Assembly (NCBI GenBank): GCA_001790095.1
Contig: MGBH01000001.1
Span: forward strand, 960,001-992,000
DNA: 32,000 bases
Reading direction: 5' to 3'
DNA from: Candidatus Saccharimonadota bacterium
GTDB taxonomy: Bacteria; Patescibacteriota; Microgenomatia; UBA1406; GWC2-37-13
The notes under the pieces are model-generated. The model ran no database searches and was not told the DNA's origin. It saw only the letters and a list, made by a program, of their open reading frames with translations. This document shows, piece after piece, positions 1 through 30,589 of this stretch. Position 1 is the first letter of the stretch. The number at the start of each line of letters is the position of its first letter. The position numbers and the translations under genes are program-made.

Positions 1-496
1 TTTTCATCCATTTATCAAATGGAATATCGTGAGCCCCCTTCACGATCCATTCGCTTGTCATACCGGGAAGCACAGAAAAACGTGCCTGGTATTGCTTTGG
101 GATCAGAAGCGCCTCCTCCATGGGGAGCGGACGCGGACCAATCAAACTCATCTCACCCCGCATAACATTGATAAGCTGTAAGATCTCATCAAGGGCATAA
201 TGAGAGAGTTTTTTTCCTACTTTTGTGTATCTTGGGTCATGACGAATCTTAAATACCGGCCCATCAACTTCGTTGAGATGAAGAAGCTTTTTTTGTTGCT
301 TTTCTGCTCCAACTACCATAGTCCGGATTTTATAGAGAGTAAAGGGTTTTTTACCCTTTCCCATCCGCTTTTGTGTAAATATAAACGGGCCCTTAGAATC
401 AAGTTTGACTATAATATACAATACACAAAGGACTGGGATCAGGAAAATTAATCCGCAAAAAGCTATGATGCGATAGAGAAAATAACGAAGCGCCAT
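1..496 (-). CDS. Bacterial sugar transferase (polyprenyl-phosphate sugar-1-phosphate transferase, WbaP/PglC-like). N-terminal part only; the 3' end lies beyond the window start.
   Basis: Absent from the ORF track because it runs off the window. My own translation of the minus strand from the ATG at 496 gives MALRYFLYRIIAFCGLIFLIPVLCVLYIIVKLDSKGPFIFTQKRMGKGKKPFTLYKIRTM...DGPVFKIRHDPRYTKVGKKL..DEILQLINVMRGEMSLIGPRP. That is one TM helix followed by the conserved blocks of the bacterial sugar transferase family. The start lies 4 nt after the rho stop. Confidence 0.85.
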   Translation of the reverse strand, partial: MALRYFLYRIIAFCGLIFLIPVLCVLYIIVKLDSKGPFIFTQKRMGKGKKPFTLYKIRTMVVGAEKQQKKLLHLNEVDGPVFKIRHDPRYTKVGKKLSHYALDEILQLINVMRGEMSLIGPRPLPMEEALLIPKQYQARFSVLPGMTSEWIVKGAHDIPFDKWMK

Positions 497-499
497 GAC

Positions 500-1855
500 T
501 TATCCTTTATTCAGACTTTCCAAAAATTCTTTATTATCTTTGGTCTTGGAAAGCTTGTTGATAAGCGCGGTTAGTCTCTCCTCAGGAGTAAGAAGTGACA
601 ACATGCGACGCAAGGTATTGATACGCACCTGTGTCTCCGCATCAAAAAGCAACTCTTCATGACGAGTACCTGATTTTTCTACATCTATGGCTGGATACAG
701 ACGCTTGTCAGCAAAACCACGATCAAGATGAATCTCCATATTGCCGGTACCTTTAAATTCTTCATATATGAGATCATCCATCCGTGATTCTGTCTTTATA
801 AGAGCGGTTCCAATGATGGTAAGACTTCCCCCTTCTTCACAGTTGCGTGCAGCTCCTAAGAATTTTTTAGCGGGAAAAAGCGCTGCCTGATCAAATCCAC
901 CAGACATGCTCCGCCCGGTACCGCGTCCACCATTGCGTGTATCTACCGAAAGATTGAGCGCACGAGCTAATCGTGTAATTGAATCAAGCAGGATGACTAC
1001 GTCATCACCCATCTCAACCATGCGGCGGGCACGGTCAAGGGCAAGATGTGCCACCTTGACTTGCTGGCGAGGAGACTCATCAAAGTTTGATGCTGCTACC
1101 TCTCCTTTGATAAATCTCTTTATCTCTGTTACTTCCTCTGGCCTCTCACCGATGAGGATGGCCATAAGGCGAGCTTTTGGATAATTTTGTGCAATAGCCT
1201 CGGCCATTTCCTTCAAAAAGGTCGTTTTTCCGGCTTTTGGCTGAGAGACAATAAGAGCTCTCTGTCCAAATCCAACAGGAGAAATAAGATCAATTATGCG
1301 CATAGCCAACACTTCCTTTTTTGTTTCAAGTTTTATCTGTTTATTGGGATGCAAAGAAGTAAGGCTGTCAAAATTTTTTCTTTGTCTGCTTTGTTCTTCA
1401 GTAAGTTCAACTCCGTTTATCTTTTTGATAAGAAGAAGCGAATGAAACCGTTCGCCTTCTTTTGAAGGCCGCGCTAATCCTTCAACCAAATCTCCTTTTC
1501 GCAACCAAAATCTGCGGATCTGAGAGGTTGAGACATAGATATCGGCGTCTGGATTGATAGCATAATCTTTTCTTAAAAAACCATATCCGCCAAATGTGAT
1601 ATCCAGTATTCCTTTTGCTTCATAACTCATCTTCAAATCCTCTTTTAGTCGCTCTTCAAGTGGCGTGTCTTTTTGAGGTTCTTTTGACGCTACAGGAGTT
1701 ACCTCTTTTTTAACATGAGGCTTTTTGACTGTTAAGGGCATTTCCTCAGGAATAATAATAGGCTTTTCCTCATAGGCTTCAAGCATCGAGGAGACATCAA
1801 GAGAAGATGTAGGAGCGGTTTTTTTCTCCGCCGCTGTTTTTCTTTTTGTGAACAT
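500..1855 (-). CDS. rho: Transcription termination factor Rho
   Basis: 451 aa. It has a charged N-terminal extension, an RNA-binding OB region (YGFLR...[17 protein letters not shown]), Walker A ([16 protein letters not shown]), and downstream Rho blocks ([45 protein letters not shown]). Confidence 0.95.
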
Positions 1856-15450: not shown

Positions 15451-15765
15451 TTACTTTTTTTTCTTTTTCAACTCAAGTTTTTGAAACCATTTGCGGCGAA
15501 ACATCATAGCGATCACTGCATACACTCCAATATCCATCCAGCTGTCATCTATTGATTCGTGTTTTGGATTTTTGTTCACCAATAACAGATTTTTCAGTCT
15601 GTTTAATTTATCACTTATCCTGTATGCAATCCCCATCTCGCCCGTATCAAGGATATTACCCTTACCATAATCTCTGTGTTTTTTTATAAACAGTGTTTTT
15701 AACTCACCACATATCTCCTCAAACGCGCTGTCCAAATCTGTTGGTTGTTTCATTGGTTGCTTCAT
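15451..15765 (-). CDS. DUF1599-like (nucleotide-modification-associated domain 1 / all-alpha MazG-like) protein
   Basis: 104 aa and helical. It has the KHRDYGKGN ... RISDKLNRL blocks typical of small MazG/DUF1599-type proteins that accompany thyA in phage and bacterial nucleotide loci. The assignment is from memory of the family, not from a search. Confidence 0.55.
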   Translation of the reverse strand: MKQPMKQPTDLDSAFEEICGELKTLFIKKHRDYGKGNILDTGEMGIAYRISDKLNRLKNLLLVNKNPKHESIDDSWMDIGVYAVIAMMFRRKWFQKLELKKKKK

Positions 15766-15814: not shown

Positions 15815-16330
15815 TTATTCTTTCTCCAAATCAAGAAACGTAAACCTTGCTCCCTTTTCTTCTCTCTCTTCTTTTGAGACAACTTTTGTAAATGCCGAAT
15901 AATCAGGAAAAAACTTATCACCATCAAATTCTCCCTTTACAATAGTTAAATAGAGTCTATCTACAAGGTGGATCGTCTGCTTAAATATCTGCTCTCCTCC
16001 TGATATAAATACTTCTTCTGTTTCTATCTCTTTAGCTTTCTGTAAAGCCCCATCGATTGATGAAACCACAAAGCACCGCTCCTGTTTTGGATCATAGGCA
16101 GTGTCGCGGGTTATGATGATTGTATTTCGCTCTGGCATGGGTTTTCCACTTCTTTGATAGTATCCAAGAAGCGAGTCAAAGGTGCCTCTCCCCATGATGA
16201 CGGTATGATGAAGCGTTTTTTCTTTAAAACGGACAAGGTCAGCGCGTATATGCCACGGTATGAGGTCGCCCTTGCCGATGACTCTGTTTTCAGACAGGGC
16301 ACAGATGATGCTAAGTTTCGGATTGTTCAT
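15815..16330 (-). CDS. folA: Dihydrofolate reductase
   Basis: LSIICALSENRVIGKGDLIPWHIRADLVRFKEKT, VIMGRGTFDSL, ISGGEQIFK. It sits immediately downstream of thyA. Confidence 0.9.
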   Translation of the reverse strand: MNNPKLSIICALSENRVIGKGDLIPWHIRADLVRFKEKTLHHTVIMGRGTFDSLLGYYQRSGKPMPERNTIIITRDTAYDPKQERCFVVSSIDGALQKAKEIETEEVFISGGEQIFKQTIHLVDRLYLTIVKGEFDGDKFFPDYSAFTKVVSKEEREEKGARFTFLDLEKE

Positions 16331-16379: not shown

Positions 16380-17399
16380 TTAGATCGCCCTAAGTTTTTT
16401 TAATAGCTTTAAATTTTCATCATATAATCCACCCGTTACACTCAGCGATGCTTTGATTGGTAGATGTGGATTGTATCCTACCAAATCAACATATGATGGT
16501 TCAAAGTCGTCAACCGTTTTAAAAGAATGATTGAAATGTATCGTGGGAAATACTTTTGGTTTTCTTTTTAGCTGTTCTTGGACTTGGGTTACGTGCAGTT
16601 CATAGATGTGCACATCCCCAAACGTATGGATAAATTCTCCGGGTTCATATCCTGTTACTTTTGCCAGAATCAATGCAAGTAAAGCATAGCTTGCGATATT
16701 AAAAGGTACTCCTAAAAATATGTCAGCACTTCGCTGATAAAGCTGAAGGCTTAATTTACCATCAATGATATTGATCTGGTACATGTTGTGACATATGGGA
16801 AAGCGGGATGCATCTTTTTTGAGAGCCATCGTATAAAGATACTCGGGATTCCATGAGTTGACGATAAGATTATGCGCTGCTGGGTCTTCTTTAATCTCCT
16901 GAATTACCCATTTAAGCTGATCAATAGTCCTGGGTTTACCCTGTAAATCTTTAGATTTACATGGCCAACGTCTCCACATCTCACCATAAATTCTTGGAAG
17001 CTCTCCCCATTTCTTTGCAAACTTTTCATCAGCTGCAATATTGTTTATAAATTCCTCTTTTGATAATAATTCTTTATACTTTATACTTTCTACTTTCTTC
17101 TTACTCTTTTCCACGTAAATCCTATACGGATAATCGTCCCATATATGTACATTATTATCGACTAAATATTTAATATTTAACATACCCTTCATAAACCAAT
17201 TCAATTCATGCAGTACTCCTTTCCAATACACCTTTTTAGTGGTCAGAAGAGGAAAGCCCTGGGATAAATCAAATCGTATCTGGCGCCCAAACACGCTCTG
17301 AGACACATCTCCTGTACCCCTGTCAACTTTTTTGACTCCATGATCAAGTATGTCTTGAAGAAGATCAAGATATTGATATTCGGGGTGTCTGTACTTCAT
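16380..17399 (-). CDS. thyA: Thymidylate synthase (ThyA type, long form with a small-domain insert)
   Basis: DRGTG, FPLLTTKK, LHELNWF, nucleophile block FPICHNMYQ, YQRSADIFLGVPFNIASYALL (the Asn indicates dUMP specificity), GDVHIYELH. Confidence 0.95.
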   Translation of the reverse strand: MKYRHPEYQYLDLLQDILDHGVKKVDRGTGDVSQSVFGRQIRFDLSQGFPLLTTKKVYWKGVLHELNWFMKGMLNIKYLVDNNVHIWDDYPYRIYVEKSKKKVESIKYKELLSKEEFINNIAADEKFAKKWGELPRIYGEMWRRWPCKSKDLQGKPRTIDQLKWVIQEIKEDPAAHNLIVNSWNPEYLYTMALKKDASRFPICHNMYQINIIDGKLSLQLYQRSADIFLGVPFNIASYALLALILAKVTGYEPGEFIHTFGDVHIYELHVTQVQEQLKRKPKVFPTIHFNHSFKTVDDFEPSYVDLVGYNPHLPIKASLSVTGGLYDENLKLLKKLRAI

Positions 17400-17462: not shown

Positions 17463-17981
17463 TTATGATCGAGAGGTTTTAGAAGTTAATAAAGGGCAGG
17501 AATCAAGGATAGAAGGATTGGGTCTATTTATAAGTAGTTGCCGCATGAGGTCAAGGGATGAAGGTTGAGCGTTCAATCCATTTGTTTGTGCTCTTACTAA
17601 TTCTGTTGCGTCCCTGTAATCTTGTGGTTGTAATGGTTGTTTGCTGTTTAAACGAACCGCAGGATACCATCTATCTATCCTATTGCTATCAAGTTCATAG
17701 ATAGCAACACCATTTCGTTCAACCACTTGAGAAGTTAAAAGAAGTGCGTGAGTGTATGTGTCTGTGTCTTTTAGCACCATCCAGTTTGCTGCCTGCGGTG
17801 GAACTACATATTCCGGCATCATAAACCACCGCATTGGCATCCCTAATTTACCCTCTTTGATTAATCTATATTCTTCATCAGATACGATCCGTAAAAAATA
17901 CCCTGTAGAGTCTTTTTCTGTCACAAGTTCGCGTATCCTATCCCCAACATATTTATCTGAGAATTGTGGTGGTAATTCCAT
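17463..17981 (-). CDS. Hypothetical protein (orphan); first gene of the thyA-folA operon
   Basis: 172 aa and soluble, with no recognisable motif. It is on the same strand 63 nt upstream of thyA. Confidence 0.5.
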   Translation of the reverse strand: MELPPQFSDKYVGDRIRELVTEKDSTGYFLRIVSDEEYRLIKEGKLGMPMRWFMMPEYVVPPQAANWMVLKDTDTYTHALLLTSQVVERNGVAIYELDSNRIDRWYPAVRLNSKQPLQPQDYRDATELVRAQTNGLNAQPSSLDLMRQLLINRPNPSILDSCPLLTSKTSRS

Positions 17982-18113: not shown

Positions 18114-18794
18114 ATGCACAAAAAAAATTACTATATTATTGATTTTGACAGCACCTTTGTAAGATGTGAAGTATTGGAAGAGATAGCAAAGATATCTCTT
18201 CATGACAACCCGGATAAAAAAATTATTCTTAAAGAAATTGTTGCGATCTGTAATCTTGGTATGGAGGGCGCTCTCCCCTTTGAAGAAAGTCTTACTAGAA
18301 GATTAACTTTATTGCATGCCAATAAAGAGGATTTAAAAAAAGTCCGTGATGTATTGAAAAAAAACATTACTCCCTCCATATTGATACATAAAGAATTTTT
18401 TAAAAAGAACAAAGAACAAATTTATGTTATATCCGGCGCATTTAAAGAATGTATAACACCCATAACAAAACTATTTGAGATATCTGATAGTCATGTACTT
18501 GCAAATACATTTGTCTTTGATGACAGAGACAACATCATAGGAATAGACCTTCAGAATACACTTTCTCACAAATTTGGAAAAGTAAAAGCCGTACAAGCAT
18601 TGGATTTAAAAGGTAAACTTATCGTTGTTGGCGACGGCTATACTGATTATGAAATAAGAAAAGAAGAACTAGCTCATGTTTTTGTCGCATTTACTGAAAA
18701 CGTGAGACGGGAAAGCGTCATATCAAAAGCAGACTATGTGGCTGCAAATTTCGATGAATTCTTAAGACTTATCTCAACTGATCTTAACCGTTAA
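18114..18794 (+). CDS. HAD-superfamily hydrolase, subfamily IB (phosphoserine-phosphatase-like)
   Basis: Motif I IIDFDSTF (DxDxT), motif II VISGAF, a Lys (GKVKA), and motif IV VGDGYTDYE. Confidence 0.8.
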   Translation: MHKKNYYIIDFDSTFVRCEVLEEIAKISLHDNPDKKIILKEIVAICNLGMEGALPFEESLTRRLTLLHANKEDLKKVRDVLKKNITPSILIHKEFFKKNKEQIYVISGAFKECITPITKLFEISDSHVLANTFVFDDRDNIIGIDLQNTLSHKFGKVKAVQALDLKGKLIVVGDGYTDYEIRKEELAHVFVAFTENVRRESVISKADYVAANFDEFLRLISTDLNR

Positions 18795-19330
18795 ATCTGT
18801 GTTTCCCTTTTTGAAGTTGTCACACGCCCACCCTGCCATTGTCCTTTATATTGATTTCCTCCCCCATCTACCCACTCAAACTGCGCATGTACAAAACGTG
18901 CTCCCATCTCAATAACAACTTCTACCTGCCCTTCGTTTTTAAGACCAAAGGTAAGCTTACCACAGTATCCTGGCGCTCCGTTGCCTGTGCGCAAATTAAG
19001 ACCTGACCTAAAGGTAGTAGTACGAGGCTTGAAATTCACCGTAATATCAAGGGGAAGATTGACTTTTTCAATTGTCGTAACCAAGAAGTAATCACCTGGC
19101 TTAATCGTAATGGTGTTTTTCTTTCCTTCTTCATACTTTGTTACAAGTTCAATTGTTGGCGTTTCTCTCTCGGTTATTCCTAAAAATGCATGGCCTGATA
19201 TCTTATAAACTTCTCCCAGTCGCATATCAAACCCCGCCCCCTCAGGAGTCTTTAAATCCCGCTCTCCTAATCCTTCAACCAGTTTTTTTTCTTTAACCAA
19301 TTTTAATAGTAACTCCGGACCAAGGATCAT
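18791..19330 (-). CDS. dCTP deaminase/dUTPase-fold protein, divergent at the catalytic positions
   Basis: A gap-free by-eye alignment to E. coli Dcd covers DMRLGE (DVRLGN), PGDYFLVTTIEKVNLP, PRTTTFRSG (GRSSLARLG), GAPGYCGKLTFGLKNEG (IDPGWSGCIVLEFYNSG) and a C-terminal YKGQWQ. The Dcd catalytic Glu aligns with Gly, and the ID of IDPG aligns with GA. Confidence 0.7.
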   Translation of the reverse strand: MILGPELLLKLVKEKKLVEGLGERDLKTPEGAGFDMRLGEVYKISGHAFLGITERETPTIELVTKYEEGKKNTITIKPGDYFLVTTIEKVNLPLDITVNFKPRTTTFRSGLNLRTGNGAPGYCGKLTFGLKNEGQVEVVIEMGARFVHAQFEWVDGGGNQYKGQWQGGRVTTSKRETQI

Positions 19331-19354
19331 ATGTGTGATAAAAAATTATAATAC

Positions 19355-20194
19355 TTACACGACTCCCATCTCTTCCAGATCAACCCCGCCATCCTTATCG
19401 AAAGTAACTTCATAGATCGGTAAAGCCGCGCCTAAACATTTTAACGTTTCCATAAGATGGGCCTCTCCAGTCTCTGAAAGCACCTCATACAGATACTCAT
19501 CATCACACCCCTGAGGCAATGTGACTGCTTTGTTTTCATAGAGAGACTTTGCCAGCAATCTGTGGCGTTTGTTTACCAGATCTGTATGATACACAAATAC
19601 CTGTGTGTGTTTGCGATGACCCTCAACCAGTGCATCATACTGAGGATATATACTATATTCTCCTTTTACCAAAACAACCGCTCCCTCTATGTGATCTTCT
19701 CTAAGGATCTGTTCTTTTGCTCCTTGTATTTTCGCTTTGGTAAAGGTATTCGTAACAAATTGAAGATCTTCTGAAGTAACACCATAGTCTTTTGGGGTAA
19801 GTAGTATTTGGCTCATGTGCCCGCATCCTTCAAATACGTTCCCCTTTTGAGTATGGATATCTGTGTGAAATCCTAGGTTGTTTTCTCCTCCTATGATTTC
19901 AACAAGTGTGCGATAGGCTTTGTCTTTATCAAGCTCAAACCCGTACTCATTTGATGCTGCGATGATAAGAACAAGCTCTCCTGCGTCAGCGCCCGGTATA
20001 GCCAGGCCCGGCAGATTAGGAGTATCCCCATATCTCCCATCTATGCAGCGACTTCTATACTGCCCGTCTTCCTTTACTTCATACTTGTTTTCCCGTGCCA
20101 GATGAAAAATCTGCTCTTTGGAAAGTAAGATCTTTTGCATAGATTTCACATTATACCTAAATAAGTTGGCCGGTAAACTGCGTTTCGTTGGCAA
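19355..20194 (-). CDS. Hypothetical protein with CIDGR ... PGADAG ... HTD ... GCGH motifs, co-transcribed with the Dcd-fold gene
   Basis: 279 aa and soluble. It lies 24 nt upstream of the Dcd-like gene on the same strand. A likely alternative start is the ATG at 20140 (MQKILLSKEQ), which has a TATAAT 9 nt upstream. Confidence 0.6.
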   Translation of the reverse strand: MPTKRSLPANLFRYNVKSMQKILLSKEQIFHLARENKYEVKEDGQYRSRCIDGRYGDTPNLPGLAIPGADAGELVLIIAASNEYGFELDKDKAYRTLVEIIGGENNLGFHTDIHTQKGNVFEGCGHMSQILLTPKDYGVTSEDLQFVTNTFTKAKIQGAKEQILREDHIEGAVVLVKGEYSIYPQYDALVEGHRKHTQVFVYHTDLVNKRHRLLAKSLYENKAVTLPQGCDDEYLYEVLSETGEAHLMETLKCLGAALPIYEVTFDKDGGVDLEEMGVV

Positions 20195-20595
20195 AGATAA
20201 AACAACTCATCTATCATAAGAAGATGACAGAGGTATCCTCACTGATACAAGCAACAAGCAGCGCAATCATGAAAAATGTGACAAATGAGCTCAATAAGGC
20301 TGTCAAAACGTATAGTGAATCATTGTTTCAAGCTTTCATAACTTTTCTTAAAAAGACGTTTGAGAATGTCCTGAATCATATTTCCCTCTGGCTTATGCAA
20401 ATATTGCAGGAAGTAAGCCAGCGGCTCCCAGATTACGGACAAAGGATCATGATAAAGATCATACCTGTTATTGTCATGATTGCTCAAGTCCTCATAGGTC
20501 TTGTTTGTCTCGTGCTACTTATCAAACTACTATCTTTCATAGTCCGTGCTTTTATTAAGATTTTTCCTTTATTAAAAAAACGAAGAAGAAGATAA
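20188..20595 (+). CDS. Hypothetical small membrane protein
   Basis: 135 aa with one C-terminal TM (IIPVIVMIAQVLIGLVCLVLLIKLL) and a basic tail. The start is uncertain (MTEV at 20224 is possible). It lies upstream of the GT4 gene on the same strand. Confidence 0.4.
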   Translation: MAKIKQLIYHKKMTEVSSLIQATSSAIMKNVTNELNKAVKTYSESLFQAFITFLKKTFENVLNHISLWLMQILQEVSQRLPDYGQRIMIKIIPVIVMIAQVLIGLVCLVLLIKLLSFIVRAFIKIFPLLKKRRRR

Positions 20596-22514: not shown

Positions 22515-23933
22515 ATGATGCAACCCACACGTTTGTTCATCTTTTTTTCTGTCGGAGTGCTTTTTTTGAATATCTCTCTCAATGGTGCTGCTCATGCTTA
22601 TTGGGTAAGCCAAAATGACCGGTTGATGTGGTATAACGGACAGGTTTTGGGGATTGAAGACAAAACAGCCTATACCTACGTAGTAAGGGCGAAGCTAAAG
22701 ATTGCTCCAACCGGTGCCACTTCTCCCTCCAATACTCTGCCTACTCTTGCTCTTACCCCCGCTCCTACTCTTGCTTTTACTTTCCCTCTTACTCCTTCTC
22801 CTACTATAATAGAAGTTGCTGCGTTACAAAATTTTGCCGGGCAAGGACAAAAACCAAATCTTCTCCCAAATAAAAACAATAGTCAGACTCATTCATCAAC
22901 CTCATCATCTTCGTCGTTTTCGTCTTTATCTTTATCTTCATTTTCATCCTCATCTTCATCGAATCAGTCTCAAAACTCATTTGGTTCGTTTGATTCTAGC
23001 TCTTCGATATCTATCATCGTGTTTCCAACAGCTACCCCATATAATCGACCAGCAGGGGAGGGTTTTTCTGCCCCAGCTCAAATGCTATCAAGCAGTTCGC
23101 AAAATAACGTAGCATTCATGCCGCCCACATTAACCAGCGTCCCAACCCACATGCCTTATCCCACTCAAGCACCAAAAAAAATGGCTTTTATTAATAGTGT
23201 GCCATCAGGAAGCACCTCATCCCTCCCAACACCCACTCCCATACCTGAGATATTGCGTGGTAAATCATCAACTATCGTTATTGAGATGCCTACGCCAGCC
23301 CCTGCTCAAAGATCGCCTTTTACGATTGTACCTGCTCCCACATCCATCATCCTCAAGGGAGAAGAAATGAGAACTATCAAGATTGATCTTCCTAAAGAAG
23401 AGGTAAAAACATCAAACCCTGAAAATCCATCTATTAGTAATAGTAATCTTGACATTACAATCGAACGTAAGCGGGGTGATGATATTGCGATTCAACAGCA
23501 GGAATTTGTGATTCAAAGAGGTATGCAAACTGTCATCATCTCAACCAATGAACAACGTCAAGGCACTCTTACCATCGAAAAAAACGACACAAAAGCACGT
23601 ATAACTATGCCCATATCCATCAATCCAACAACCAATATTTTGACTGTTGATACAAAAAGTGGCCCTATGAAAGTATCTATCATGCCTGATGATGCACTAA
23701 GCATCATACGACAGCTAAAGGTCGTTGATAAAAGCGGAGTTCCACAAGATATCATCCTTGAGTCCAGAAATAACCAGCTTCAATACCGAATACGTGCAAA
23801 TAAGCAAGAGAGACTTTTATGGGTTATCCCCATCACCGTACCTAAAGATGTATACGTTGCGGCAGATACCGGAGGACTTATCGAGATCAAGCTCTCACCA
23901 TTTTACGATTTTCTAACACTGTTTACGTTTTAA
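22515..23933 (+). CDS. Secreted Ser/Thr/Pro-rich protein, hypothetical
   Basis: It has a signal-like N-terminus (LFIFFSVGVLFLNISLNGAAHA), long low-complexity PT and poly-Ser tracts, and a more ordered C-terminal region of about 170 aa. Confidence 0.6.
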   Translation: MMQPTRLFIFFSVGVLFLNISLNGAAHAYWVSQNDRLMWYNGQVLGIEDKTAYTYVVRAKLKIAPTGATSPSNTLPTLALTPAPTLAFTFPLTPSPTIIEVAALQNFAGQGQKPNLLPNKNNSQTHSSTSSSSSFSSLSLSSFSSSSSSNQSQNSFGSFDSSSSISIIVFPTATPYNRPAGEGFSAPAQMLSSSSQNNVAFMPPTLTSVPTHMPYPTQAPKKMAFINSVPSGSTSSLPTPTPIPEILRGKSSTIVIEMPTPAPAQRSPFTIVPAPTSIILKGEEMRTIKIDLPKEEVKTSNPENPSISNSNLDITIERKRGDDIAIQQQEFVIQRGMQTVIISTNEQRQGTLTIEKNDTKARITMPISINPTTNILTVDTKSGPMKVSIMPDDALSIIRQLKVVDKSGVPQDIILESRNNQLQYRIRANKQERLLWVIPITVPKDVYVAADTGGLIEIKLSPFYDFLTLFTF

Positions 23934-28447: not shown

Positions 28448-30589
28448 TTAGTATGATGAAAGTGATTCAAGTTTTGTCCTTAACGCATCAAGTTGACCTT
28501 CCTCAGGAATACTACCTAGATTAGCTATACTGCCTTGTAATTTTGTAATTGCCCTATCTACTTCATCTATTGCAAGTTGGGCTTCCTGTATTTGTCTTGT
28601 TTTTTGCTCGAGACTTAATCCCGTTTGAATACCCAAAAATCTTCTTCCAACCTGGGCTGATTCTACAGTCTTAAGCTGTTCTTTTAATTGCTCAAGAACG
28701 GCCGCCTGTTCTGCAATTTGACCTGAAAGATTATTCTGTTGCTCTGTTTTTACACTACGTTCCTCCGCTTGTTTACTTAAAGTGGAATCTGTGCTTTCTT
28801 TTTGAGCGGTTATTATTGCGTCAACTACGTTTCTTTTTTCTCCATCTAATTTTCTTGTCTCTTCTTGTACTCCTTCATAAATTCTTCCTTGAACCCGAAG
28901 ATCTTCTCCTCGTTGGAGTTCATAATTTCCTTCAAGAAATGATTCAGGATCTTCATCAAAAAAGGCTTTAATCGCCTTATGGACTCTTTCCATATTTTCT
29001 TCCGCAAGATACTCTTCTTTTATGCCAAATTCTTGAGATAACACTTTTTTGTAGTAACTTTCTTTATCGGTTAACGTATAGCCTTCTTTATTGTCGCCCG
29101 AAACAAGTGATTCAATATAGTAATAAGCAGGCAATAATTTTGTAGCAAGTCGTGATTTATGTCTTGTTAATTGGCCAGGTTCTCTAAATTTACTTGCCCA
29201 TGCGGTTGCCATAGATCCAAGAATTCCTCCTTGAGGATTTTCAATGATTTTGACCAAATGGATAAAATTAAAAGAGTTTGGGTCATCGGTTAAAGCGCGA
29301 TCCATTTGAAACAATTGAGTATTATCTATCTTTGCTCTTTTAGCATCAAAACTCATGTCTACTCCTTTTGTTGCTAGGCCTAAATTTTCAAATTCGTTCC
29401 ATTCAGCAATGTCACCATGTCTTTGATTTTTCCAAAAATCATAAGTTCCAAGCGCTTTTTGTTTAAGCTCTGAAGTATAACTTCCTACTGAAAATTCTGA
29501 ATACATACGACGAGTCAATTCTCCAGCAATAGAATTAGCAACCTCTGCCTGAAATACATTTCCTATACGAGTATCTATGCTTTCTGCTACATTTTCCCGT
29601 GTTAAAGATCTGCTTTCAACCATATTATCGACCATTTGTTCAAGAGCCTGATCTTCTAGTTCATTTTTTCTGGATTGTGTATCGCTTATCCGCTGAGAAG
29701 CAATCCATCTATCTCTCCTCGCTCGTACTATACCGGCCAATTTTTTATCATATTGTGTCTTAATGCTATCCACACCTCCATAATTTGCCATTTCTGCAAA
29801 ACGACCCTCGCCTATACAGCTAAAAGTGGCAGTCATCTTTTCTTTGTCGCTGTCTTGAAGAAGCCCCTCTCTATCCAACTTATCAAGTGTCTGTTCAAGA
29901 ATATTAAAATACCTATCCACAGTCCCCACATTACGTTTGACAGCTTCCGCTACAATATCAACAATAACACCATAATCTTTATAGGCAACAGCGGTTAAAA
30001 TGGCTGCGTCAATTGCATAATGACAATTCTGTTTTTCTGATTCAACTATCTTTGACACCACATCTTTCCCTACAGCCTTTGTATCTAATAACTTATCTCC
30101 TTGAAACCCCTTAGGAAAAAGATGTTCTATCACATGTCCTGCTGCTTGAGGAATCAGTTTATCAGAATAAGAGTCTGAATATCCATGTCCGGCAGCTCCA
30201 AATAGTGCTTGAAGGTAAGTTATTTCTACTGGGGGAGGTGACCATCCGATTTTCCACCCATATTTATCCAAGGCAGGAATTGCGGAGATAAAGTTTCTTG
30301 AGAGATAAGGTAGTTCTGTCTCCTTCTTCGTTGCATATACTTGAAGTTTTGCCAACCATTGCTCTTGTGACAGAGAGGTTTTACTTGTCTCTGCGTCACC
30401 TACTCGTTGATTTGCTGGATTGTCCTCTGGCATATACTGCCACCCATGCAGTTCTCTACTTAATGAAGGAGGAATATTTACTTCAAGACCTAGATGCAAT
30501 CTACGCTGAGTCTCTATTTTCAAAGCTTGAGGACCCATCTGAGATCGATCTACTAGATTAGAAGGAGAAACTTCGTTTTGAACAGTCAT
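28448..30589 (-). CDS. Large hypothetical protein with a C-terminal coiled coil (orphan)
   Basis: 713 aa with no signal peptide or TM. The last roughly 130 aa are heptad-like and Gln/Glu/Leu-rich (LSGQIAEQAAVLEQLKEQLKTVESAQ ... IQEAQLAIDEVDRAITKLQGSIANL). The long clean ORF argues that it is real. Confidence 0.65.
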   Translation of the reverse strand: MTVQNEVSPSNLVDRSQMGPQALKIETQRRLHLGLEVNIPPSLSRELHGWQYMPEDNPANQRVGDAETSKTSLSQEQWLAKLQVYATKKETELPYLSRNFISAIPALDKYGWKIGWSPPPVEITYLQALFGAAGHGYSDSYSDKLIPQAAGHVIEHLFPKGFQGDKLLDTKAVGKDVVSKIVESEKQNCHYAIDAAILTAVAYKDYGVIVDIVAEAVKRNVGTVDRYFNILEQTLDKLDREGLLQDSDKEKMTATFSCIGEGRFAEMANYGGVDSIKTQYDKKLAGIVRARRDRWIASQRISDTQSRKNELEDQALEQMVDNMVESRSLTRENVAESIDTRIGNVFQAEVANSIAGELTRRMYSEFSVGSYTSELKQKALGTYDFWKNQRHGDIAEWNEFENLGLATKGVDMSFDAKRAKIDNTQLFQMDRALTDDPNSFNFIHLVKIIENPQGGILGSMATAWASKFREPGQLTRHKSRLATKLLPAYYYIESLVSGDNKEGYTLTDKESYYKKVLSQEFGIKEEYLAEENMERVHKAIKAFFDEDPESFLEGNYELQRGEDLRVQGRIYEGVQEETRKLDGEKRNVVDAIITAQKESTDSTLSKQAEERSVKTEQQNNLSGQIAEQAAVLEQLKEQLKTVESAQVGRRFLGIQTGLSLEQKTRQIQEAQLAIDEVDRAITKLQGSIANLGSIPEEGQLDALRTKLESLSSY

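Follow-up and report, generated by a model that had tools for sequence, protein, structure and literature searches.

What does a protein do that has the fold of a dCTP deaminase but carries neither of the catalytic acids of its relatives? A pair of adjacent genes in a 32,000-nucleotide (nt) stretch of DNA from a Candidatus Saccharimonadota bacterium (contig MGBH01000001.1, positions 960,001 to 992,000; hereafter the window) raises this question. The downstream gene encodes the protein concerned, which we call DcdL, and the upstream gene encodes a protein that we call P261:

18791..19330, minus strand: DcdL, a protein of 179 amino acids (aa) with the all-beta trimeric fold of dCTP deaminases and dUTPases, an open reading frame (ORF) with a match to PF22769
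19331..19354, minus strand: spacer of 24 nt from the P261 stop to the DcdL start, with a TATAAT inside it (sequence reading and terminator scan)
19355..20140, minus strand: P261, a zeta-carbonic-anhydrase-like (CDCA-like) protein of 261 aa with a predicted zinc site, delimited by its ORF and its homologues
19355..20194, minus strand: ORF of 279 aa from the ORF list that starts at a TTG and includes P261; the TTG start is probably unused

The original prediction, made from the sequence alone, had described an operon of two genes in which an orphan protein is joined to a Dcd-fold protein without its known catalytic residues, and had suggested that the pair could be a nucleotide-binding or nucleotide-converting system or a regulatory pseudo-enzyme. 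We conclude that DcdL and the P261 branch are two real, uncharacterised variants of known families.

DcdL matches the Pfam family PF22769 (DCD) at E = 8e-21, with 75.2 bits against a gathering score of 27, and it has this family as well as the Arg and Ser/Thr of motif II in common with Dcd and bifunctional Dcd-Dut enzymes (B. halodurans 4xjc, M. jannaschii, and M. tuberculosis). Its scores stay under the NCBIfam equivalog cut-offs for dCTP_deam (TIGR02274; 67.7 versus 92.8 bits) and dut (TIGR00576; 17.8 versus 102.55 bits), and under the NCBIfam cut-off for the archaeal-type dUTPase (NF002598; 52.4 versus 130 bits). Automatic annotation names it "dCTP deaminase" or "hypothetical." The AlphaFold model of DcdL has a predicted local distance difference test (pLDDT) score of 83.5, and Foldseek aligned it with B. 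halodurans Dcd-Dut, E. coli Dcd, and the T. pacificus and P45 dUTPases at template-modelling scores (TM-scores) of 0.65 to 0.80. It was 0.75 to 0.80 for 4xjc, E. coli Dcd, and the T. pacificus dUTPase. Against Dcd structures the TM-score was 0.69 to 0.77, and the best Foldseek match was B. halodurans 4xjc, with a TM-score of 0.77.

Residues were assigned from phmmer and profile alignments to PDB chains and from a MAFFT alignment, with an E. coli Dcd sequence that is presumed to be correct. The segment GN-G-A119-PGY of DcdL aligns with W-V-D-PGF/W in 4xjc, 8y1w, and 9ln0 and with IDPGW in E. coli Dcd, and the motif-III Asp of every reference is replaced by Ala119. Likewise, T-F-G129-L-K-N aligns with T-L-E-L-F-N, placing Gly129 where the deaminase Glu stands (E. 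coli Glu138); the archaeal monofunctional dUTPases have Met at this position. Both substitutions, previously read by eye, recur in the phmmer, profile, and MAFFT alignments, none of which puts a Glu or Asp at a catalytic position. The nucleotide-binding arginines are retained as had been supposed, PRTTTFRSG aligning with GRSSLARLG. In motif IV, DcdL reads R145-F-V-H148 and not R-x-x-Q, so that His148 lies opposite the Gln of dUTPases and bifunctional enzymes, a position occupied by Ala in monofunctional Dcd. Motifs I and II, the motif-IV Arg, and the C-terminal phosphate-closing arm of dUTPases are all present in DcdL, aligned with those of archaeal dUTPases. These residues and the sub-cut-off model scores together bear out the view that DcdL is not a standard member of either enzyme class, dCTP deaminase or dUTPase. 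The gapless alignment to E. coli Dcd did not hold up, however: DcdL is 2 residues shorter in the loop between motifs II and III, and it aligns without gaps to the archaeal dUTPases.

A census of 190 family members found no Asp or Glu at position 119 (Ala in 168, Gln in 9, Pro in 9, Ser in 2, His in 1, and Gly in 1) and none at position 129 (Gly in 102, Ala in 85, and Ser in 3). Position 148 is His in 184 of the sequences, Phe in 5, and Ser in 1. Invariant in all 190 are D35, E88, R103, T105, T106, R108, R114, Y122, N132, E141, and R145, together with Y161, Q164, W165, Q166, and R169 of the C-terminal arm. Given this census, we regard the substitutions as fixed, family-wide features under strong purifying selection and not as signs of decay. 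One sub-branch (loci L035, L036, L046, L049, and L067) carries the changes K101I, N117I, A119Q, H148F, and Q150T (Q150I in L049); these five co-ordinated changes surround the presumed catalytic-water site, and the rest of the protein is highly conserved.

By sequence, the best matches of DcdL among solved structures are the archaeal Dcd-like monofunctional dUTPase of Thermococcus pacificus (8y1w) and the thermostable dUTPase P45 (9ln0 and 9ln3), at E = 2e-12 and 28 to 31% identity. The two groups have the same fold (TM-score of about 0.8 when normalised to the target) and loops of equal length between motifs II and III. Both have an AG[YF]DLR motif I, an R-F-V-x motif IV, and a Y-x-G-x-[YW]-Q-G-x-x-R C-terminal arm, and neither has the deaminase Glu. 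The archaeal enzymes, however, have retained both the Asp of motif III (V-D-PGW) and the Gln of motif IV, where DcdL has Ala119 and His148. Relative to Dcd and Dcd-Dut, DcdL differs in its lack of the catalytic Glu (190 of 190 sequences) and of the Asp. About 26 loci have a genuine Dcd (209 bits) in addition to DcdL.

To what cellular process does such a protein belong? A homology search with DcdL gave 3,555 matches, the best 120 of them at 69 to 99% identity, and a scan of one genome per GTDB species placed relatives in at least 497 species. The best 80 DcdL loci come from Roizman-, Levy-, Ryan-, Paceibacterota-, and Saccharimonadales-type bacteria and other Patescibacteria. Many loci of typical Patescibacteria type stand under GTDB titles such as "uncultured Gammaproteobacteria bacterium (binchicken...)" (e.g., L003, L004, L011, and L012), and the same locus type occurs on contigs labelled Aenigmatarchaeota, Sulfotelmatobacter, and Eisenbacteria; these titles look like placeholders or mis-binned labels.

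We then counted neighbours in 81 loci, using tblastn of the window proteins within 6 kb of DcdL. A thymidylate synthase gene, thyA, was present in 70 loci and folA in 62, whereas P261 was present in 22 and missing from 59. In 40 loci thyA is the very next gene after DcdL, and in 16 it is the second. DcdL is thus a Patescibacteria-wide family and a member of a thymidylate/folate operon. Since P261 is missing from most of these loci and thyA is present in most of them, DcdL is not one half of a two-gene system, as had been proposed; distant P261 relatives, moreover, are unlinked to nucleotide genes. The adjacency of the pair does recur elsewhere, in a minority of DcdL loci.

Clustering of all neighbouring ORFs resolved two main operon architectures. 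Architecture A (about 26 loci) comprises canonical Dcd, Tmk, DcdL, ThyA, and dihydrofolate reductase (DHFR), sometimes followed by SHMT. Its Dcd scores 209.3 bits with TIGR02274, keeps both the Asp and the Glu, and carries Ala or Ser in place of the motif-IV Gln, like monofunctional E. coli Dcd; its Tmk belongs to PF02223. Architecture B (about 24 loci) comprises GT1 on the opposite strand, P261, DcdL, ThyA, and DHFR, with DUF1599 and QueA often coming next. DcdL operons can also contain FolC-like genes, and three loci reached from P261 homologues have the order P261, DcdL, ThyA (directly or after FolC), and DHFR. Only the conversion of dUTP to dUMP is missing from the route from dCTP to dTDP that architecture A encodes, and the operon contains no other dUTPase.

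The strongest argument that DcdL supplies a dUTPase function comes from locus L086, in which Dut takes the same slot. Here the gene between P261 and ThyA encodes a canonical Dut of 154 aa with all five motifs (L086:5865-6329, plus strand), scoring 82 bits with PF00692 and 109.5 bits with TIGR00576 against a cut-off of 102.55. This looks like an in situ displacement within the slot of the DcdL operon.

Our preferred explanation, to which we would give somewhat less than an even chance, is that DcdL may be a dUMP-supplying, dUTPase-like hydrolase with non-canonical water activation. In such an enzyme dUTP, and possibly dCTP too, would be bound through the intact motifs I and II, the motif-IV Arg, and the C-terminal arm, and dUMP and pyrophosphate would be released, the dUMP for ThyA, making DcdL the functional equivalent of Dut. 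In dUTPases the motif-III Asp orients the nucleophilic water and the motif-IV Gln hydrogen-bonds the alpha-phosphate, and the water-activating residues have been called strictly conserved "from viruses to man" (PMC3905902). Because this universal Asp is absent from DcdL, its activation of water would have to be non-canonical. Candidate replacements are His148 acting with the family-specific Asn117, Arg114, and Glu141, or a metal-bound water. We infer both the dUTPase-like activity and these replacement groups. As a relocated general base common to the whole family, His148 is weakened as a candidate, given the Phe148 and Gln119 of the sub-branch described above.

Several observations weigh against this explanation. 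In M. tuberculosis Dut, exchanging the Asp for Asn (D83N) leaves 0.0002 of the wild-type catalytic efficiency with substrate binding unchanged (PMC5519681). Under the textbook mechanism, a protein without the motif-III Asp should bind its substrate and not hydrolyse it. The same sub-branch, with Ile117, Gln119, Phe148, and Thr150, has no obvious base at all. DcdL also co-occurs with canonical Dcd, and a third role (as a regulator, a sensor, or an enzyme for another nucleotide) would fit these contexts equally well. In the Saccharibacteria-labelled locus L048, a canonical Dut (21-386) lies immediately upstream of DcdL (413-952, plus strand), and no thyA was found within 6 kb of DcdL; this Dut-DcdL pair could be an intermediate stage of gene displacement or could reflect a distinct role of DcdL. 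Strict mutual exclusivity of DcdL and Dut was rejected on the strength of this locus, where the two genes stand side by side. Over the same locus pairs DcdL does equal or exceed ThyA in conservation (mean pairwise identity: DcdL, 68.7%; ThyA, 63.2%; DHFR, 49.8%; Tmk, 43.4%; and P261, 37.4%), but this comparison makes DcdL appear more conserved than it is, because the 81 loci are the best matches to DcdL itself.

Could DcdL instead be catalytically dead? It might bind dUTP, dCTP, or dTTP and serve thymidylate synthesis as a sensor, a regulator, or a scaffold, for instance through control of ThyA or Dcd or through sequestration of dUTP, and would then produce no dUMP. The lack of an acid at the Asp and Glu positions in all 190 sequences is what such a pseudo-enzyme would show, as is the behaviour of M. 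tuberculosis Dut D83N, which binds normally and is practically inactive. The sub-branch that lacks both the Asp and His148 is still highly conserved, canonical Dcd stands alongside DcdL in about 26 loci and canonical Dut in L048, and conservation at or above the level of ThyA could reflect several interaction surfaces. We nevertheless consider a pseudo-enzyme unlikely: a true Dut occupies the exact slot of DcdL in L086, the architecture-A operon offers no other dUTPase, and DcdL has no regulator-type domain. In addition, the invariant phosphate-closing arm and phosphate-binding residues are typical of turnover and go beyond what mere binding calls for.

Somewhat less likely still, in our estimate, is that DcdL catalyses another reaction or acts on another substrate in deoxypyrimidine metabolism, for example as a dCTP pyrophosphatase, a bifunctional enzyme converting dCTP to dUMP with Glu141 or Arg114 standing in for the canonical Glu, or a sanitising hydrolase for another deoxynucleoside triphosphate. 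The invariant Arg114 aligns with E. coli His121, which belongs to the active site and has been probed by mutagenesis (PDB 2j4h), and Glu141 is a second family-specific invariant charged residue. DcdL stays below every equivalog cut-off, and it occurs alongside Dcd and Dut much as M. tuberculosis carries both Dut and Dcd:dut. However, nothing places Glu141 near the base, the closest sequence relatives of DcdL are monofunctional archaeal dUTPases, and the canonical Dut that stands in for it in L086 favours a role equivalent to that of a dUTPase. We therefore retain the dUTPase-like hydrolase as our preferred explanation for DcdL.

If DcdL belongs with thymidylate synthesis, what is P261? The upstream protein had been described as an orphan of 279 aa. 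The ORF of that length exists, but its TTG start was rejected in favour of the ATG at 20140 (MQKILLS), since nearly all homologues are about 260 aa long and have an equivalent start; a protein of 261 aa is therefore more likely. Nor is it an orphan. P261 is 100% identical to a hypothetical protein (P0001) of Candidatus Roizmanbacteria RIFOXYB2_FULL_38_10 and has 82 close homologues of about 260 aa, and an exhaustive profile search recovered at least 905 clusters at 50% identity with E <= 1e-3, 494 of them with E <= 1e-10. P261 had no match in Pfam, NCBIfam, PHROG, or PADLOC, and its profile matched only a His-tag artefact (3qfg) among PDB sequences. The conserved columns of the family are R-C32-I-D34-G-R36-Y, P-G-x-D52-x-G, F-H92-T-D94, G-C106-G-H108, and H150-x-E152-x-A; conservation reaches at least 90% in C32-I-D34-G-R36, H92, and C106-G107.

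The AlphaFold model of P261 has a pLDDT of 95 and a predicted TM-score (pTM) of 0.92. Its sole significant structural match was CDCA1, the cadmium/zinc zeta-class carbonic anhydrase of the diatom Thalassiosira weissflogii (PF18484; PDB 3bob, 3boh, 3uk8, and 7bez): all five Foldseek matches with E <= 0.001 were CDCA1 repeats, with a probability of 1.00 and E values of 5e-5 to 6e-4. The match is partial, with TM-scores of 0.42 to 0.49 by query and 0.49 to 0.59 by target. The two proteins have the arrangement C-[VI]-D-x-R ... H ... C-G in common, whereas their identity is only about 16%, P261 exceeds a single CDCA repeat by about 50 residues, and P261 is a single-domain bacterial protein where CDCA1 has several tandem repeats (domains 1 to 3 are named in the PDB entries). 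According to a 2015 review, homologues of CDCA1 were known only from diatoms (PMC4413181).

Intermediate sequences link P261 to this family. Weak PF18484 matches were found in 5 of 36 P261 relatives (best E = 0.0016), and another relative, P0333, scored 26.1 bits against a gathering score of 29.2. A second paralogue from the Candidate Phyla Radiation (CPR), in locus L088, passes PF18484 at 40.2 bits and contains the motifs CVDGR, HTSTH, and DCGF. Because L088 holds both proteins, CPR genomes can carry two divergent zeta-carbonic-anhydrase-like paralogues. An hhalign comparison of P261 with the PF18484 protein of L088 gave E = 9e-5 and a probability of 59%, with FHTDIH..GCGH opposite VHTSTH..DCGF, and P261 and this bacterial CDCA-family paralogue have an L-x-G-x-H-x-E-x-A motif in common. 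The third repeat of CDCA1 has a site formed by Cys473-Val474-Asp475, an Asp/Arg dyad, His525, and Cys535-Gly536-Phe537 (PMC8217695). The sequence pattern of P261 repeats this site except for His108 in place of Phe537, and H92 and C106 are among the residues aligned by hhalign.

We conclude that P261 is a distant homologue of zeta-class (CDCA-type) carbonic anhydrases. Its predicted site would comprise Cys-His-Cys metal ligands and an Asp/Arg dyad, and the protein most likely uses zinc to hydrate CO2 or some similar small molecule, metal binding and substrate both being predictions. Three observations count against such an assignment: the CO2-pocket Phe537 of CDCA1 is His108 in P261 (and H, Y, or F across the wider family), the P261 of the window has no Pfam match, and some family members have lost the metal ligands. 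In P0221, P0233, P0239, P0261, P0271, P0289, and P0293, HTD and/or CGH, and in some also CxDxR, are lost; judged by their motifs, members of this kind are probably non-catalytic derivatives. The C-x-D-x-R motif, the Cys-His-Cys zinc ligation, and the Asp/Arg dyad are also those of beta-class carbonic anhydrases and their COS/CS2 hydrolase relatives. The CDCA1 site has been described as superimposable on the beta-class site, and CDCA1 also hydrolyses CS2 (PMC8217695). The beta-class fold, however, differs from that of P261, with only two weak Foldseek matches, both to LCIB/LCIC proteins at E > 1, and any relationship between P261 and this class would be one of convergence.

Distant members of the P261 family occur in varied settings. 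L083:6054-8365 and also L084 contain a 454-aa fusion of a P261/CDCA-like protein with rhodanese, whose gene shares 4 nt with the end of the gene before it, which encodes a bestrophin-type anion channel; this adjacency hints at a bicarbonate or sulfur-anion function in the distant rhodanese-fused branch. In the giant proteins P0281 (1888 aa) and P0317 (1877 aa), a P261-like repeat occurs four times, which recalls the tandem repeats of diatom CDCA1. Another distant family member has no nucleotide-metabolism neighbours.

Why, then, does P261 stand next to DcdL? Of the 20 loci that we measured, 13 have P261 as the gene just before DcdL, separated from it by 13 to 385 nt, and the other 7 have it one to two genes away. 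A dUTPase-superfamily gene and a thymidylate synthase remain neighbours of P261 even where these have been swapped, for Dut in L086 and for ThyX in L088, the latter locus (L088:1566-9346) containing NDK on the opposite strand, Dut, ThyX (538 aa), the P261 homologue, QueA, and TGT. The adjacency of P261 and DcdL may nonetheless be inherited and not functional, because the two genes lie in a long syntenic block of housekeeping genes in which HtrA, TatD, GT1, QueA, and Tgt are also syntenic. On a ThyA tree the loci with P261 group largely in a single clade, inside which close relatives without the gene also occur. We conclude that P261 is an accessory gene found mainly in one lineage and that the functional unit is the thymidylate/folate operon. 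In the window, whose P261 points to a Candidatus Roizmanbacteria genome (CPR/Patescibacteria), the pair would form the beginning of this operon for dTMP synthesis.

A dedicated pair would require more of P261, namely that its zinc-bound hydroxide deaminates a cytosine deoxynucleotide in place of Dcd and that DcdL takes the product to dUMP. P261 and canonical Dcd share the upstream position and never one locus (24 versus 26 loci, overlap 0). P261 is kept beside its partners despite the Dut and ThyX swaps, and His108 replaces the pocket Phe. A Cys2His zinc site with a bound water is, moreover, the ligand set of cytidine and dCMP deaminases. This idea is improbable. The exclusivity of P261 and Dcd is confounded by phylogeny, the P261 loci forming largely a single clade, and the gene is missing from close relatives within that clade and from 59 of the 81 DcdL loci. 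The whole TatD, GT1, QueA, and Tgt block is syntenic, distant family members lie in unrelated or anion-channel contexts, and H, Y, or F at position 108 would fit an aromatic wall of the pocket like that of CDCA1. We regard as a long shot the still broader scenario in which most CPR/Patescibacteria would make dUMP without a catalytic Asp and P261 would have been recruited in Roizmanbacteria as a deaminase replacing Dcd, giving a new route from dCTP to dUMP.

How is the pair embedded in the window? The neighbouring features are as follows:

20150..20177, minus strand: promoter-like site TTTACC-16 nt-TATAAT, a consensus match that ends 9 nt 5' of the ATG at 20140
18114..18794, plus strand: HAD-IB (SerB-like) phosphatase (TIGR01488, 54.1 bits versus a cut-off of 45; PF12710)
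17463..17981, minus strand: 172-aa protein between DcdL and thyA, an ORF without a family match
16380..17399, minus strand: ThyA thymidylate synthase, 339 aa (PF00303, E = 7e-92; NF002496, 353 bits versus a cut-off of 325)
15815..16330, minus strand: folA, dihydrofolate reductase (PF00186, E = 2e-43)
15451..15765, minus strand: 104-aa DUF1599-like protein ("nucleotide modification associated domain 1"; PF07659, 23.5 bits versus a gathering score of 25; phrog_1485, E = 2.6e-17)

The ORF coordinates confirm the two ORFs, the 24-nt gap between them, and the 4-nt overlap of DcdL with the convergent HAD-IB phosphatase gene, all of which had been noted before. thyA and folA lie downstream of DcdL on the same strand. 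The terminator scan found no terminator-like hairpin between P261 and DcdL, and with so short a gap and no terminator-like site in it, the two genes are probably co-transcribed. In a Roizmanbacteria-like lineage, co-transcription of P261 and DcdL would start from a promoter just upstream of P261. The TATAAT box 9 nt upstream of the P261 ATG is conserved, since the peptide RYN.K.M recurs in the homologues P0017 and P0051; in N-terminally extended gene calls of these two, this peptide is TATAAT read as codons. The promoter-like site may imply that the transcript of the P261-DcdL unit has a very short leader or none. Promoter-like sites are not enriched in the region, where 12 were found and 10 expected.

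Adjacency of DcdL and thyA, usual in most loci, is broken in the window by the 172-aa gene and the convergent HAD-IB phosphatase gene. The 172-aa protein had no match in Pfam, NCBIfam, PHROG, or PADLOC, and by tblastn a homologue of it occurred in 1 of the 81 loci; HAD-IB occurred near DcdL in 5. In L059 and L065 a HAD gene lies between P261 and DcdL on the same strand. The DUF1599-like gene directly follows folA in the window and recurs after folA in 8 of the 81 loci. Residues 9 to 321 of ThyA cover a Pfam model of 266 positions, which implies an insertion of about 50 residues, and the best fit is the long NF002496 subtype. A 135-aa ORF with a TTG start (20188..20595, plus strand) in the divergent region between P261 and GT1 is probably no gene, with a homologue in none of the 81 loci. 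Two further ORFs had no Pfam match, a 472-aa Ser/Pro-rich ORF with an N-terminal hydrophobic segment (22515-23933, plus strand) and a 713-aa ORF (28448-30589, minus strand). The remaining genes of the window are housekeeping genes (Rho, an ABC transporter, Fmt, Tgt, QueA, TatD, HtrA, an S41 protease, and SSB), and tRNA and Rfam scans of the window found no tRNA genes, riboswitches, or other Rfam families.

An anti-phage role, raised by the original prediction as conceivable, finds no favour in this housekeeping neighbourhood, nor in the searches: PADLOC gave no match for DcdL, P261, or their neighbours at E <= 0.1, PHROG returned nothing for P261 and only a generic "dCTP deaminase" group for DcdL, and in tblastn against phage genomes DcdL reached at most about 33% identity to phage Dcd/dUTPase genes and P261 had no match. 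A literature search on this Dcd-like family and on zeta-carbonic anhydrases in Patescibacteria/CPR turned up nothing relevant.

What these two families mean for the biology of the CPR differs between them. The family related to P261 spans a bona fide CPR member of PF18484, rhodanese fusions, and giant proteins of four repeats, all of them candidate zinc or cadmium enzymes, and the existence of at least 900 clusters of bacterial zeta-carbonic-anhydrase relatives would change the picture of how this class originated. DcdL is a family on the scale of a phylum, as conserved as ThyA, which sits in the thymidylate operon of hundreds of CPR species without the motif-III Asp. Should DcdL be inactive, it would be an unusually strongly conserved pseudo-enzyme; should it be active, it would represent an alternative dUTPase mechanism and would fill the dUMP-supply step in metabolic reconstructions of the CPR.

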